From Acidimicrobiia bacterium (GTDB taxonomy: Bacteria > Actinomycetota > Acidimicrobiia > Spongiisociales > ZC4RG35), in the NCBI GenBank assembly GCA_036380875.1, contig DASVDX010000086.1, positions 20,974 through 84,973 of the forward strand: 64,000 nucleotides of DNA, given 5' to 3'. The notes beneath the pieces were generated by a model. It was given only the letters and a program-made list of their open reading frames with translations. It had not been told where the DNA came from and searched no databases. The translations under genes and the position numbers were made by a program. Positions 28,944 to 64,000 of the stretch are shown piece by piece. How positions within the stretch are numbered: position 1 is the stretch's first letter; each line of letters begins with the position of its first letter.

Positions 28944-29414
28944 TCAGAAGCCGGGTGTCTCCTCGCTCTCGCGGTACAGGGCGTCGGCAGCGGCCTGCTC
29001 CTCCTCGAACGCAGTCACGTCCCAGATCTCGATTCGGTCGAACACGCCGACCACGGCGACCTCGCTGGCGTTGTGGATCCCGGCGTACTCGCGCAGGCGC
29101 GGCTTGATCACGATCCGTCCCTGGGAATCCATCTTCTGGAGGTCGGCCGCGGCGAACTTGGCCCGGATGTCGCGGCGGGTCTCGCGGACCCGGGGGCGCT
29201 GGATCTCCTCTTCTGCCACCTGACGGAACTTGTCTTCGGTGAACACGACGAGGTTCCCGTCCGGGCCCTTGGTGACCACCACGTTGCCGCCTTCCTCCTT
29301 GATGACGGCGCGGAACGGGGCGGGCATCACGACCCGCCCTTTCTCGTCCAACGTGTGGATGTAGTCCCCAAGGAACACTCGTTCGCTCGCATGGTCAGTT
29401 GCTCGTCCTTCCAC
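28944..29414 (-). CDS. mraZ: Transcriptional regulator MraZ
   Basis: Two SpoVT/AbrB-like MraZ repeats with the DxxGR signatures (LDEKGRVVMP and MDSQGRIVIKP). An alternative GTG start at 29378 (VFLGDY) would match the canonical MFLG N-terminus. Confidence 0.85.
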   Translation of the reverse strand: MEGRATDHASERVFLGDYIHTLDEKGRVVMPAPFRAVIKEEGGNVVVTKGPDGNLVVFTEDKFRQVAEEEIQRPRVRETRRDIRAKFAAADLQKMDSQGRIVIKPRLREYAGIHNASEVAVVGVFDRIEIWDVTAFEEEQAAADALYRESEETPGF

Positions 29415-59295: not shown

Positions 59296-60492
59296 CGTCC
59301 GTCTATGGCATCCCTCTGGCGCACGCGCCCGTTTCCCATCATCTGGACGGTCGGTCTCTTCCAGGAGATCGCTTTTTCTTTGATGGTCAACCTCCCCGGG
59401 CGCCTCTACGAACTGGGGATCGAGGAGTCGGGCATCGGCATCGCCTACTCGATGTCCGCCCTCGCCGCCCTCTTGCTCCGCCCATGGTTCGGGCGCGTGT
59501 TGGACGTCGTCCACCGCCGCACTGTGCTTCGGGTTGCCGGAGTGGGGAACATCGTGGCCATCGCCGCCCTGGCCGTGATCGACGAGTCCGGCCTGCTCCT
59601 GTGGGGAGCGTTCCTCTTGCAGCGGATCGTCCAGGTCTTCCTCTACACGACCGCCCTCACCTACGCCGCCGACGCCGTCCCGGTCGGTTTGCGCACCCAG
59701 GGACTGGCTCTGTTCGGTCTGTCCGGCCTGATGCCCATCGCCTTCGCCAACCTCATCGGCGACGCCTTGTTGCGGCTCGGCGGCTATCCGGGTGTGATCG
59801 CCGCCGCCGGGGTGTCCAGCCTCATCGCCTGGGGGCTCGTCTGGGGGCTGCCGCTCCTCCCGGTCCTGGGCGAACGGCCCCGGCGCAGCTTCTGGGCGGT
59901 GGCGATCCAGCGTGACATGCTCCCGTTGTGGTGGATCACCCTGACGTTCTCGATGGGCATGGAGACGGTGTTCACGTTCATCCGCACGTACATCGACACG
60001 GTCGGCATCTCCACCATGGGCACGTTCTTCGTCGTCTACGGCGGAACCGCCACCTTGACGAGGATGCTCGGCGGGAGCCGCTACGACGCCCTCCCCCACC
60101 GCCCCATGGTCGTCTTCGGGGTCGCGATCCAAGGGATCGGGCTCGCCCTCGTCGCCTTCGCCAACGGCGTCGCCATGGTTCTGAGCGGCGCCCTCCTCAT
60201 GGGCCTCGCCCACGGCGGGGTGTTCCCCATCCTGTCGAGCGAGGTGGTGTCGCGGGCGCGGACCGCGGAGCGCGGCTCGGCGGTGGCGATGTTCACGTCG
60301 CTGTTCGACGCCGCGCTGTTGATCGTCGCCCCGCTGGGCGGGTTCCTCATCGAGTGGGCGGGCTACACCCGGGGCTTTTCGACCGTGGCCGCGATCCTCG
60401 TCGCCGGAGCGGCGGTCTACGCTGCCTGGGACCGACGCCTGGTGGCGTCGACCCGTGCCGAGGAACCGGCCGCTGCCGGCGAAGTGGTTTGA
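59296..60492 (+). CDS. MFS transporter
   Basis: 12 predicted TM helices. Start at MASLWRTRPF inside the track ORF 57907..60492. Confidence 0.8.
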   Translation, partial: RPSMASLWRTRPFPIIWTVGLFQEIAFSLMVNLPGRLYELGIEESGIGIAYSMSALAALLLRPWFGRVLDVVHRRTVLRVAGVGNIVAIAALAVIDESGLLLWGAFLLQRIVQVFLYTTALTYAADAVPVGLRTQGLALFGLSGLMPIAFANLIGDALLRLGGYPGVIAAAGVSSLIAWGLVWGLPLLPVLGERPRRSFWAVAIQRDMLPLWWITLTFSMGMETVFTFIRTYIDTVGISTMGTFFVVYGGTATLTRMLGGSRYDALPHRPMVVFGVAIQGIGLALVAFANGVAMVLSGALLMGLAHGGVFPILSSEVVSRARTAERGSAVAMFTSLFDAALLIVAPLGGFLIEWAGYTRGFSTVAAILVAGAAVYAAWDRRLVASTRAEEPAAAGEVV

Positions 60493-60526
60493 CCGCTTCG
60501 CTGCGTGTGGCATACTTGCCCGACAC

Positions 60527-60559
60527 ATGTCCTCGACACTGGTACTTCTTATCGGCTGA
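60527..60559 (+). CDS. ilvBNC leader peptide MSSTLVLLIG (10 aa)
   Basis: ATG tcc tcg aca CTG GTA CTT CTT ATC ggc TGA. Five consecutive Leu/Val/Ile codons. Located 126 nt upstream of ilvB and immediately followed by a 10-bp perfect hairpin and a terminator. Confidence 0.45.
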   Translation: MSSTLVLLIG

Positions 60560-60596
60560 CGCACACGCCCCCAAGACCGGCGTGTGCGTCACCTTG

Positions 60597-60620
60597 CCCT
60601 CCCCAGCGGGAGGGTTTTTT
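60597..60620 (+). terminator. Rho-independent terminator / attenuator (CCCTCCC cagc GGGAGGG TTTTTT)
   Basis: 7-bp GC stem, 4-nt loop and a 6-T tract on the + strand. Preceded at about 60560-60588 by the hairpin CGCACACGCC-cccaagacc-GGCGTGTGCG. Confidence 0.55.
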
Positions 60621-60685
60621 GTATCCAGAGGACGACCCCACGAGACGAAAACCACAGGCAGAGCGAACGACCACCGAGGCAAGCC

Positions 60686-62398
60686 ATGAGCAGCACAACC
60701 GGCGCCCACATCCTCCTGCAATCCCTGGCCTACGAAGGCGTGGACGTGGCGTTCGGTGTACCCGGCGGTGCCATCCTCCCCTTCTACGACTCGCTCTACG
60801 GCGGGCCGATTCGCCACATCCTCGCCCGCCACGAGCAGGGGGCCGGGCACATGGCCGAAGGCTACGCCTGGGCGACCGGGCGCGTGGGCGTGTGCATCGC
60901 CACATCGGGACCCGGCGCGACCAACCTCGTGACCCCACTGGCCGACGCCCTCGTCGATTCGGTCCCAGTGGTGGCGATCACCGGTCAAGTTCCGACGAGC
61001 GCGGTGGGAAACGACGCCTTCCAAGAGGCGTACACGACCGGCATCACGATGCCGGCTACCAAACACAACTACTTCGTCACCGATCCCGATGAGATCCCCC
61101 AGATCGTCCACGAGGCGTTCCACATCGCCGCCACCGGGCGGCCCGGGCCGGTGCTGATCGACTTCCCGAAGGACATCCTCAACGCCCCCACGGGATGGAC
61201 GGAGCCCGACGGGATCAACCTGCCCGGCTACAAGCCGACGGTCGACGGCCACATCCCCCGCATCCGCGAGGCGGCCGAGCTGATCGCCGCCGCCCGGCGC
61301 CCGATCCTCTACGTCGGCGGCGGCATCATCAAGGCCAACGCCGCCGGTCCGCTGCGCACCTTGGCCGAGCGCACGGCGGTGCCCGTCACCACCACCCTGA
61401 TGGGACGGGGCGCCTTCCCGGACGAGCACCCGCTGGCGCTGGGGATGCCAGGGATGCACGGCACCTACGCCGCCATCTCGGCCCTGCAACGGGCCGACCT
61501 GATCATCGCCATCGGGGTGCGTTTCGACGACCGCGTCACCGGAGACCCGAACACGTTCGCCCCCGAGGCGAAGGTGATCCACATCGACGTCGATCCGGCG
61601 GAGATCGGAAAGGTCCGTTACGCCGACGTGCCGATCGTGGGTGACGCCCGCCGCGTCGTCGAGCAACTGATCGAGGCCTGGGGCGACCGCGAAGTGCCCG
61701 ACCGCGAACCGTGGATGGAGATGCTGCGCCGTTGGCAGCGGGAGCATCCCCTTCGCTACACACAGGATCCCGACGGCCCGGTGAAGCCGCAGTACGTGAT
61801 CGAGGAACTGCACCGTCTCACCGGCGGCGACGCCATCCTCGTCTCGGGCGTGGGCCAGCACCAGATGTGGGCCAGCCAGTACTGGAAGTTCGACAACCCG
61901 CGCCGCTGGATCAACTCGGGTGGCCTGGGGACGATGGGCTTCGGGGTGCCCGCCGCCGTCGGCGCCAAGGCGGGAAAACCCGACGAGCTCGTCCTCGCCG
62001 TCGACGGCGACGGCTGCTTCCAGATGACGTCCCAGGAGCTGATCACGGCCGCCGTCGAGGGTCTGCCTGTCAAGGTGGTGGTCTTCAACAACGGTGCCCA
62101 CGGCATGGTGACCCAATGGCAGCGGCTCTTCTACGAAGACCGCTTCTCTGCCTCGCAACTCGGCGACGGCGTCGACTACGTCAAGCTCGCCGAGGCGATG
62201 GGATGCCATGGCTTCAGGGCCACCACCCCGGACGAGGTGTCGCCGACCCTGGAGAAGGCCTTGTCGACCAACGACAAGCCGGTGGTCGTGGAGGTCGTCG
62301 TCGACCGCGAAGAGATGGTGTTCCCGATGGTGCCGGCGGGCGGCTCCTGCGACGAGGTGTTCATCAGCCGGGACGAGAAAGTGAAGCTGGAGCGATGA
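60686..62398 (+). CDS. ilvB: Acetolactate synthase large subunit
   Basis: TPP and FAD domains ([12 protein letters not shown], the TPP motif [15 protein letters not shown]). Start at MSSTTGAH inside the track ORF 60584..62398. Confidence 0.95.
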
Positions 62399-62901
62399 AG
62401 CACACGCTTTCGGTCCTGGTCGAGAACAAGCCGGGAGTCCTGGCCCGGGTCAGCTCGCTCCTCGCCCGCCGCGGGTTCAACATCCACTCGCTGACGGTCG
62501 GGCCGAGCCACGAGCCGGGACTGTCGCGCATGACCATCGTGGTCGACGCCCCCGAGCTGGAGCAGGTCAAGAAGCAGCTGCACAAGCTCGTCAACGTCGT
62601 GAAGATCTCCGAGCTCGAGAAGAGCCAGTCGATCGAGCGGGAGATCCTCTTGGTGAGGGTCAACGCGCAACCTGCCCGGCGTCAGGAGCTACTGTCCCTG
62701 GCCTCCATCTTCGACGCCACAGCCGTCGATGTGGGGCCCAACTCGATCGCCTTCCAGGTCGTGGGCAAGCCGGAGAAGATCAACGACTTCCTCGACCTGG
62801 TCAGGCCGTACGGAGTCGTCGACCTGGCGAAGTCCGGTTGGGTGGCCATCGCCCGGGAGACGAAGGGTCGGGGCGCAGCGACGCTCCGAGCCGTCAACTG
62901 A
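62395..62901 (+). CDS. ilvN: Acetolactate synthase small (regulatory) subunit
   Basis: ACT domain [34 protein letters not shown] overlap with the ilvB stop. Read as the C-terminal part of the track ORF 61711..62901. Confidence 0.92.
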
Positions 62902-62921
62902 AGACAGGGAAAGAGGAACCA

Positions 62922-63926
62922 GTGGCAACGATCTACTACGAGAAGGACGCCGACCCAGCTCTGATCAAGGAACGGCGTGTGGCGATCATCGGCTACGGCA
63001 GCCAGGGTCACGCTCACGCCCTCAACCTGAAGGACTCGGGAGCCGACGTCGTGGTCGGGTTGCGCGAGGGCTCTTCCTCGTGGGATCAGGCGACCCAGGA
63101 CGGCCTCACGGTGAAGTCCGTCGCCGAGGCCGCCCGGTGGGCCAACGTCGTCATGCTGCTGGTGCCCGACGAGGTGATGGCTCAGCTCTACGAGGAGCAC
63201 GTCGCCCCCAACCTCGACGAGAACGACGCCCTGATGTTCGCCCACGGCTTCAACATCCACTACGGGGCGATCACCCCACCGGAGGACGTGGACGTGCTCA
63301 TGGTGGCGCCGAAGGGCCCCGGCCATCTGGTGCGCCGCACGTTCACGGAGGGATCGGGCGTGCCGTGCTTGATCGCCATCCACCAGGACGCCACCGGCTC
63401 GGCGAAGGAGTTGGGCCTGTCCTACGCCTACGGCATCGGCGGGACGCGCGGTGGTGTGCTGGAGACGACGTTCAAGGAGGAAACCGAAACCGACCTGTTC
63501 GGCGAGCAGGTCATCCTCTGCGGCGGCCTGGCAGAGCTGATCAAGGCGAGCTTCGAGACACTGGTGGAGGCCGGCTACCAGCCTGAGTCCGCCTACTTCG
63601 AGACGCTCCACGAGCTCAAGCTGATCGTCGATCTCCTCTATGAGGGCGGCCTGTCGTACATGCGGTATTCGATCTCCAACACGGCCGAGTACGGCGACTA
63701 CACGAGGGGCCGCCGGATCATCACCGAGGAGACCCGCAAGGAGATGAAGAAGGTCCTGGAGGAGATCCAGTCCGGGGCGTTCGCCAACGAGTGGATGGCC
63801 CAGGCTCGGGAAGGCGCTCCTCATCTCCTCGAGCAGCGCCAGGCAAACCGGTCGCATCAGATCGAACAGGTCGGCGCCCAGCTCCGCGGCCTGATGCCGT
63901 TCATCGAGGCCAAGCAGGCTCCCTGA
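62922..63926 (+). CDS. ilvC: Ketol-acid reductoisomerase
   Basis: NADPH motif [15 protein letters not shown] and the class I KARI C-terminal domain. GTG start with an AAGAGGA Shine-Dalgarno sequence 4 nt upstream. The track ORF starts at 62838. Confidence 0.95.
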
Positions 63927-64000
63927 GGCCCGGACCGAAGACGCGCACATGACTCTGGCTAGGTGGAAGGTTGTGGGTAGCGGATCCGGCACTTCGTGCG

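Follow-up and report, generated by a model that had tools for sequence, protein, structure and literature searches.

A short open reading frame (ORF) with a run of Leu, Val, and Ile codons, a hairpin with the stop codon of this ORF in its base (hairpin 1), and an intrinsic terminator lie upstream of ilvB in a 64,000-nt stretch of contig DASVDX010000086.1 from an Acidimicrobiia bacterium (the window, meaning the whole stretch analysed). This leader probably acts as a transcription attenuator of the operon ilvBNC (60686–63926, + strand), mediated by the ribosome and responsive to charged Leu, Val, and Ile tRNAs, and probably belongs to the same actinobacterial family as the ilvB1 attenuator of Mycobacterium tuberculosis. 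Attenuation of ilvBNC is in itself largely expected here. An initial annotation of the window had proposed ilvBNC attenuation as in Corynebacterium glutamicum; the leader-peptide attenuator is upheld by conservation, covariation, and rare codons, but the Corynebacterium layout, with the upstream ORF (uORF) inside the first hairpin, does not apply.

The gap between the major facilitator superfamily (MFS) gene and ilvB measures 193 nt (60493–60685), as initially annotated. The leader ORF, MSSTLVLLIG, runs on the + strand from ATG 60527 to TGA 60557–60559 (codons ATG TCC TCG ACA CTG GTA CTT CTT ATC GGC TGA). The five consecutive branched-chain codons ascribed to this 10-codon ORF (60527–60559) are present and form the regulatory run CTG GTA CTT CTT ATC (L V L L I, 60539–60553, + strand), in which GTA and CTT are rare. 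MSSTLVLLIG is the sole short ATG ORF of the window, out of 254, in which at least five consecutive L/V/I codons end at most two codons from the stop.

Hairpin 1 (60554–60593, + strand) is supported by folding and by compensatory changes. The 10-bp pairing described earlier at the leader stop, CGCACACGCC (60560–60569) with GGCGTGTGCG (60579–60588) around a 9-nt loop (60570–60578), is present, but the stem is longer. Pairing of the stop codon UGA with UCA extends it to a core of 13 continuous bp (UGACGCACACGCC, 60557–60569, with GGCGUGUGCGUCA, 60579–60591), so that the stop codon lies within the stem base, and two further bp are formed by GG 60554–60555 with CC 60592–60593. The folding energy is −26.6 kcal/mol (z = −5.8). 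Hairpin 1 is followed by a linker, UU (60594–60595, + strand; 4 nt if the GG/CC extension is unformed), and by the terminator (60596–60620, + strand), an 8-bp stem plus U6 identified by terminator scan, folding, and covariation. Its arms are GCCCUCCC (60596–60603) and GGGAGGGU (60608–60615), its loop is CAGC, and its U-tract covers 60615–60620; as DNA it reads GCCCTCCC-CAGC-GGGAGGGT at 60596–60615, then T6 up to 60620. The terminator CCCTCCC-CAGC-GGGAGGG-T6, placed by the initial annotation about 65 nt before ilvB, was found at 65 nt. Its energy is −15.3 kcal/mol (z = −3.4), and the 99-nt leader as a whole folds at −46.3 kcal/mol (z = −6.1). Just three canonical terminators were found in the 64 kb, both strands included, and that of the ilvB leader is the best. 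The other two terminator-like sites, each with a perfect stem and a T-rich tail, are at 29318 (+) and 21336 (−), such terminators being rare in this genome of 68% GC; further CCTCC...GGAGG inverted repeats at 1216, 47343, 47594, and 59019 all lack a T-tract.

The arrangement was compared across the 80 closest ilvB loci among species-representative genomes (57–82% identity; nearly all metagenome-assembled genomes (MAGs) of Acidimicrobiia). In 72 of these 80, a simple parser recovered an L/V/I-ending ORF, a stop-embedded GC-rich hairpin, and a terminator 5′ of ilvB, and the same arrangement occurs in Actinomarina genomes of 36–40% GC. A covariance model built from 21 members matched 76/80 relatives, with one match per locus, on the ilvB strand and just upstream of ilvB; it had no match elsewhere in 568 kb, the rest of the window included. 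A cultured relative, Aciditerrimonas ferrireducens JCM 15389 (L060), carries the element, with the model match at 2287–2368. Conservation of the mini-ORF in relatives, a check suggested with the initial annotation, was therefore borne out together with hairpin and terminator. The alignment has 96.1% of its cells paired, and compensatory double changes were seen in 18 of the 19 pairs. Double-change cells number 193, compared with 44.7 ± 8.5 in shuffles (0 of 500 reach 193) and at most 27 in slid-partner controls; the alignment was fitted to the covariance model and is hence biased towards the structure. Compensatory changes occur in all 11 pairs of hairpin 1, and 7 of the 8 terminator pairs covary. 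The terminator core CCUCCC/GGGAGG with its U-rich tail is conserved across the family. Loci L033, L052, L065, and L080, which carry an Acidimicrobiia-type ilvB and leader, are labelled as Gammaproteobacteria, Verrucomicrobiales, Acidobacteriota, or Streptosporangiaceae MAGs; these out-of-class labels probably reflect mis-binning, and L080 is possibly a real occurrence outside the class.

The anatomy was measured in 68 parsed members, to which the family counts given below refer. Leader ORFs have 8–22 codons (median 12), and all 68 end in an L/V/I run of 3–7 codons (median 5). Exactly one codon separates run and stop in 61/68; the stop is TAG in 57, TGA in 10, and TAA in one. Hairpin 1 begins 0–3 nt into the stop codon in every member, and in 53 the hairpin base lies 7–8 nt from where the last L/V/I codon begins. 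The linker between hairpin 1 and terminator measures 0–7 nt (median 3). The distance from terminator to ilvB start is variable, at 39–235 nt.

Codon choice within the run departs strongly from that of the surrounding genes. GTA makes up 71% of Val codons in the family runs (85/120), compared with 0.7% in the four neighbouring genes of the window (1 of 141) and 3.1% in the ilvB genes of the relatives. The corresponding shares are 23%, 2.1% (3 of 145), and 3.4% for CTT among Leu codons, and 45%, 1.2%, and 3.6% for ATT among Ile codons. Rare regulatory codons are a hallmark of attenuators, CUA in the Escherichia coli leu leader being an example; here, GTA, CTT, and ATT would make the run sensitive to tRNA charging. 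A conserved CGUAC was considered as a structural motif, and is better accounted for by rare GUA between C-ending and C-starting codons.

A sigma-70-like promoter, TTGACC-16 nt-TG-CATACT, was found at 60489–60516 and ends 10 nt 5′ of the leader ATG. On the + strand, the promoter scan placed the −35-like hexamer TTGACC at 60489–60494, overlapping the MFS stop codon TGA (60490–60492), and the −10-like hexamer CATACT, with TG upstream of it, at 60511–60516. Transcription of the leader is predicted to start at about 60522–60524. A promoter of the form TTGnnn-N16-19-nAnnnT ends 6–13 nt 5′ of the leader start codon in 56/68 members, and CATACT is the most frequent −10 among the relatives. No SD (Shine-Dalgarno)-like sequence was found upstream of the leader ATG in the window, and such a sequence precedes the leader start in just 4/68 members. 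Promoters adjoining the start codon and the rarity of SD-like sequences together suggest that the leader mRNA is leaderless or almost leaderless, which has also been reported for C. glutamicum. This signature, together with conservation of the reading frame, of the stop position, and of the rare-codon choice, supports translation of the leader ORF indirectly.

These data bear on the view that there is no regulation at all, the hairpins ending the MFS transcript and the mini-ORF having arisen by chance. The element does lie directly 3′ of the MFS stop codon and matches no Rfam family: with Rfam 15 (riboswitches including ppGpp, T-box, and known leaders) nothing reached its gathering threshold, and the best match, Phe_leader (20.6 bits, E = 2.2, threshold 55), is driven by the hairpin-terminator shape. 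An MFS homolog is, however, found upstream in only one relative carrying the element, which therefore belongs to ilvB and not to the MFS gene; a conserved promoter stands between MFS stop and leader; and the ORF, unique among the 254 short ORFs of the window, is conserved together with its rare codons. Chance is hardly credible as an explanation, and the MFS-terminator-only reading is refuted by the comparative data.

It was also considered that a trans-acting regulator, either an RNA-binding protein or a repressor responsive to branched-chain amino acids (BCAA), binds hairpin 1 or the DNA repeat, the mini-ORF being secondary. A portion of the stem (UAG-CGCAC...GUGCGC) keeps its sequence throughout a whole class, and a protein was invoked by Seliverstov et al. 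for the leuA LEU element (PMC1262725). Over both helices, on the other hand, G.U pairs outnumber A.C pairs by 60 to 17, so the helices are RNA on the + strand and no DNA palindrome; this excess, with the compensatory changes in all 11 pairs of hairpin 1, argues against a DNA operator. The hairpin loop is variable in both length and sequence, a protein-binding site would explain neither the rare-codon L/V/I run nor the fixed in-frame spacing between run and hairpin, and in M. tuberculosis a codon mutant loses regulation. We regard a trans-acting regulator as quite improbable.

The closest known system is the ilvB1NC leader-peptide attenuator of M. tuberculosis, validated in 2026 (Nat Microbiol, PMC13236596). 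There, an abundant terminated transcript of ~120 nt and ribosome footprints on the uORF were reported, the leader is induced by an IlvB1 inhibitor, and replacement of LVVI by AAAA abolishes this induction (PMC13236596). According to its authors, stalling at GUA, the named regulatory codon, lets an anti-terminator form, and a ribosome at the stop codon masks it (PMC13236596). A lacZ fusion of the homologous leader has been reported as well.

In our set (locus L084), the M. tuberculosis leader ATG lies 8 nt after a −10-like hexamer and opens a peptide of 19 residues, MDKAGKPGMLVVIGRRVGA. The run CTC GTA GTA ATT is at 1062–1073, and the hairpin (CGCGTTGGTGC/GCACCAACGCG, stop codon in the loop) has its base at 1080, 9 nt after the first base of ATT. 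The single A between the helices is itself paired within the terminator stem (A1119-U1149), which leaves an effective linker of 0 nt; the terminator is CCCTCG...CGAGGG, then T6. A model built from Acidimicrobiia only (R1) matched the M. kansasii leader with 27.8 bits (E = 8.4e-6) and M. tuberculosis, weakly but at the leader position, with 14.6 bits (E = 0.02), both E-values being rough. The M. tuberculosis leader has no Rfam family either.

Both leaders thus have a GUA-containing L/V/I run, then 1–2 codons, and a hairpin base 7–9 nt after the last run codon; a terminator with U-tract adjoining the hairpin (0 nt in M. tuberculosis, 2–4 nt in the window, 0–7 nt in the family); a leader start just after a −10-like hexamer; and the operon order ilvB-ilvN-ilvC. 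The logic proposed for M. tuberculosis, in which the hairpin stays folded during a stall and is masked once the ribosome is at the stop, fits the Acidimicrobiia geometry. They differ in that the mycobacterial ORF continues through the 5′ arm and stops in the loop after 19 residues, whereas the stop codon lies in the stem base in 68/68 Acidimicrobiia and the window peptide has 10 residues. The extended M. tuberculosis stem (GG...CC) can moreover overlap the terminator base by 2–3 nt, which is not conserved in Acidimicrobiia, where the terminator is a simple CCUCCC/GGGAGG hairpin. The peptide tail GRRVGA of M. tuberculosis (L084, 1074–1091) and M. kansasii (L085) is the translation of the 5′ arm, GGT CGG CGC GTT GGT GCC, and its conservation in mycobacteria is probably a by-product of RNA structure.

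For the attenuator of the window we propose the following course. Transcription would begin a few nt before the leader ATG, and a 70S ribosome would load at the 5′ end and translate MSSTLVLLIG; hairpin 1, with the stop codon in its base, would be the element on which the ribosome acts. A ribosome unwinds mRNA to ~11–13 nt past the first P-site base, i.e. 8–10 nt past the first A-site base. With any run codon in the A site, its front edge should reach at most the base of hairpin 1, which would stay folded; a stall anywhere on the run should leave hairpin 1 essentially intact, because the base is 7–8 nt from the last run codon and farther from earlier ones. Two translocations on, with the ribosome at the stop, most of the 5′ arm would be unwound: 7–10 nt of it would lie inside the ribosome, where the hairpin could not persist and would collapse. 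By analogy with M. tuberculosis, a folded hairpin 1 (starvation, stalled ribosome) would give read-through into ilvBNC, and a melted hairpin 1 (ribosome at the stop) would let the adjacent terminator act, with release of a ~98-nt transcript. Both the footprint geometry and the hairpin state that gives read-through are what we infer from these distances and that analogy. The one-codon spacer may then be the tightest packing that gives the same outcome for every run codon. The geometry points to folded as the starved and melted as the replete state, which would not fit a trp-type scheme in which the stall melts the hairpin. Speculatively, a GC-clamped stem base and the preference for UAG, a stop codon read by RF1 alone, would fit a hairpin held either firmly closed or firmly open.

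In the classical trp-type scheme, a stalled ribosome covers the 5′ arm of hairpin 1, and the 3′ arm, thereby freed, pairs as an antiterminator with the left arm of the terminator. This is the textbook arrangement: the order of regulatory codons, hairpin, and terminator resembles regions 1:2 and 3:4, and the last L/V/I codon is near hairpin 1. The two helices have no nucleotides in common, however, and differ in composition. Hairpin 1 consists of alternating purines and pyrimidines (CGCACACG/CGUGUGCG), the terminator of an all-pyrimidine and an all-purine arm (CCUCCC/GGGAGG), and the 3′ arm of hairpin 1 (GGCGUGUGCG, alternating purine-pyrimidine) is not complementary to the terminator left arm (CCCUCCC, all pyrimidine). 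These incompatible helix alphabets look like avoidance of cross-pairing. A ribosome on any run codon should moreover reach just the base of hairpin 1 (7–8 nt from the A-site codon), so that a stall would free no 3′ arm.

Several results weigh against an attenuator in this leader, and those from the search for an antiterminator also bear on the trp-type scheme. Folding of the window leader with a ribosome footprint at each codon kept the terminator in every minimum-energy fold, masking never displacing it; full-length masked equilibrium folding is invalid as a test, the known switch of E. coli trpL not being shown by it. With the terminator penalised, the best terminator-free fold of the window reaches −11.5 kcal/mol against −23.7; it contains the sole loop-to-shoulder pairing (AAGACC with GGUUUU), which is weak and has no covariation support. 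As a replacement test, transcripts were cut just 5′ of the terminator right arm and the probability that the left arm is paired was computed. E. coli trpL passes this test: the value is 0.17 without ribosome, rises to 0.70 when a ribosome occupies the Trp codons, and is again 0.17 when it is at the stop. The 68 family members do not (0.23 without ribosome, 0.17–0.25 on the run, 0.27 at the stop), nor does the window (0.25, 0.22–0.27, and 0.32, respectively). A mutual-information scan of the family alignment returned the annotated pairs only, with no covarying third helix. In the window, a 3-bp extension of hairpin 1 (GGC 60554–60556 with GCC 60596–60598) would overlap the terminator base; at that codon, CCC or GCC is found in the closest relatives, and no such overlap is conserved in the family. 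A mutually exclusive antiterminator sharing nucleotides with the terminator, for which the initial annotation had suggested RNA folding around the terminator left arm, is thus absent in window and family in all tests, and the trp-type scheme is highly improbable. Further points on the same side are that the attenuator reading for this uncultured organism, transcription start included, has a sequence-level basis, and that adjacency of the helices alone may be insufficient where linkers are longer. In other attenuators and riboswitches, to our knowledge, termination is not blocked by stable helices situated a few nt before the terminator. In Streptomyces coelicolor, substitution of candidate regulatory codons upstream of ilvB was reportedly without effect (PMC1262725). 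The missing antiterminator, which the initial annotation had named as evidence against its own proposal, is in our judgement outweighed by the comparative evidence and by the homologous, validated element of M. tuberculosis.

The helices being chemically orthogonal and 0–7 nt apart, hairpin 1 could be a purely positional antiterminator. Our preferred, though tentative, explanation is a relay by adjacency, in which a rigid, GC-clamped hairpin 1, with or without an abutting ribosome, may sterically block the lowest terminator pairs in the RNA exit channel. A positional antiterminator without shared nucleotides might also apply to the mycobacterial ilvB1 attenuator.

Alternatively, the stalled ribosome itself could block the terminator, a collision of RNA polymerase and ribosome being required for terminator closure. 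Hairpin 1 would then loop out ~35 nt and bring the terminator to within a few nt of a ribosome stalled on the run; with the ribosome at the stop, the hairpin would be open and the terminator >20 nt away, and no ribosome would mean termination. The fixed spacing (hairpin base 7–8 nt from the last run codon), the short linker, and the lack of any pairing common to the two helices agree with this, as does a truth table equal to that of trp, no translation giving termination. At pyrE/rph, a ribosome close behind RNA polymerase prevents the terminator. Terminator hairpins are prevented in the same way in pyrBI/pyrL-type attenuation (PMC5021804). Many leaders, however, also have L/V/I codons far upstream (e.g. 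MKKSVNLISLLVLVLM and MRRRAGIIVPVGALVNAVVLIC), and a ribosome stalled there would be as distant from the terminator as one at the stop. We know of no precedent, which counts against this explanation too, and consider it unlikely.

Set beside other attenuators, the Acidimicrobiia leader shares with the three-hairpin leader of C. glutamicum and Corynebacterium ilvB-II a BCAA-rich leader peptide, a start at or near the 5′ end, and a terminator before ilvBNC (PMC10272879, PMC11857589). In Corynebacterium, the uORF of 15–17 codons lies inside the first hairpin and the antiterminator shares terminator nucleotides, either the P1 loop with the P2 right shoulder or H2 overlapping H3 (PMC10272879, PMC11857589); in Acidimicrobiia the ORF comes before the hairpin, and hairpin and terminator have no nucleotides in common. 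Leader peptides and terminators of ilvB were predicted in Corynebacterium, Mycobacterium, and Streptomyces by Seliverstov et al. in 2005, who remarked on seemingly missing attenuator components and an unclear mode of regulation (PMC1262725). Their candidates likewise combine a short ORF with Ile/Val/Leu runs and a nearby poly-U terminator, but the ORFs overlap the hairpins, Acidimicrobiia were outside the coverage, and the one-codon spacer and stop-in-stem geometry were not described (PMC1262725). As in the enterobacterial attenuators (trp, leu, ilvBN, ilvGMEDA, his), a ribosome would read regulatory, rare codons to control an intrinsic terminator; those differ in an antiterminator that shares terminator nucleotides and in an SD-led ORF, that of Acidimicrobiia being probably leaderless or nearly so. 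With the E. coli pyrBI/pyrE type the leader has in common that there is no RNA antiterminator and that the terminator would be suppressed by an adjacent body. In the E. coli type, translation proceeds as far as the terminator or across it, and UTP-dependent pausing of RNA polymerase provides the signal, whereas the window ORF ends 37 nt before the terminator and the hairpin fills the gap.

Some further pairings were noted around the leader. The 5′ end of the mRNA, start codon included (CACAUGUC, 60524–60531), can base-pair with the hairpin 1 3′ arm (GGCGUGUG, 60579–60586), at −11 to −13 kcal/mol in the window and close relatives versus −5.5 to −8 in shuffled sequences; this pairing could hide the leaderless start codon while a ribosome keeps hairpin 1 open. 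As a family feature it was rejected (family mean −7.3 versus −6.8). The sequence GCGTGTGG (60503–60510) is similar to the 3′ arm of hairpin 1, and in transcripts reading through from the MFS gene the 5′ arm could pair with it. It was dismissed as an alternative partner: the leader promoter does not transcribe it, its position being between the two promoter hexamers (−35 and −10), and it is not conserved among relatives. In loci L038, L042, L054, and L064 (e.g. MNGETFTTDRLLVVLR) an additional hairpin lies within the ORF, CGGAGA near the start pairing with UCUCCG at the end of the run; translation would have to open it.

The terminator GGGAGG was also considered as the SD of a downstream ORF and was discarded, no conserved start codon following it. 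The leader ATG (60527) is in frame with the ilvB ATG (60686), 159 nt apart, and the frame is open from GTG 60584 across the terminator into ilvB. The open frame is probably a consequence of high GC content, the three frames being about equally open in the family (65, 63, and 56 of 68). Stop-codon read-through or starvation-induced frameshifting over the terminator was rejected on the same counts of open post-stop frames, none of them preferred, and the pattern is also inconsistent among the AT-rich Actinomarina.

The gene upstream of the leader, with its stop TGA at 60490–60492, was identified by Pfam MFS_1; ilvB (60686–62398), ilvN (62395–62901), and ilvC (62922–63926) were identified by Pfam and by gene calls on the source contigs. 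The ilvB start codon is ATG 60686–60688, from which homologs align from residue 1, and not 60687 as implied initially; its likely SD is GAGG (60676–60679, + strand). An identical ilvB protein is present on three JGI metagenome contigs. The ilvC-leuA spacer (63949–64000 and past the window end; L001, 6264–6350) holds another mini-ORF, MTLARWKVVGSGSGTSCGGLLALLWPGV, with a Leu-rich stretch (CTC CTC GCG CTT CTG) upstream of leuA that is reminiscent of the actinobacterial LEU element; an Rfam search of this spacer gave no match.

Experimentally, attenuation of ilvBNC has already been established in Corynebacterium and, since 2026, in M. tuberculosis; the present leader extends ilvBNC leader-peptide attenuation to Acidimicrobiia, a large, mostly uncultured class that includes the marine Actinomarina. 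With ~77 members and strong covariation, it defines a well-supported RNA family for which Rfam has no entry. Its regular geometry, and helices that share no nucleotides, sharpen the question raised in 2005, namely how actinobacterial ilvB attenuators work without a textbook antiterminator, and the many natural variants, which differ in linker length, hairpin strength, and position of the stop codon, can serve directly for the design of experiments. If true, the positional block would be an attenuation mechanism without alternative base pairing.

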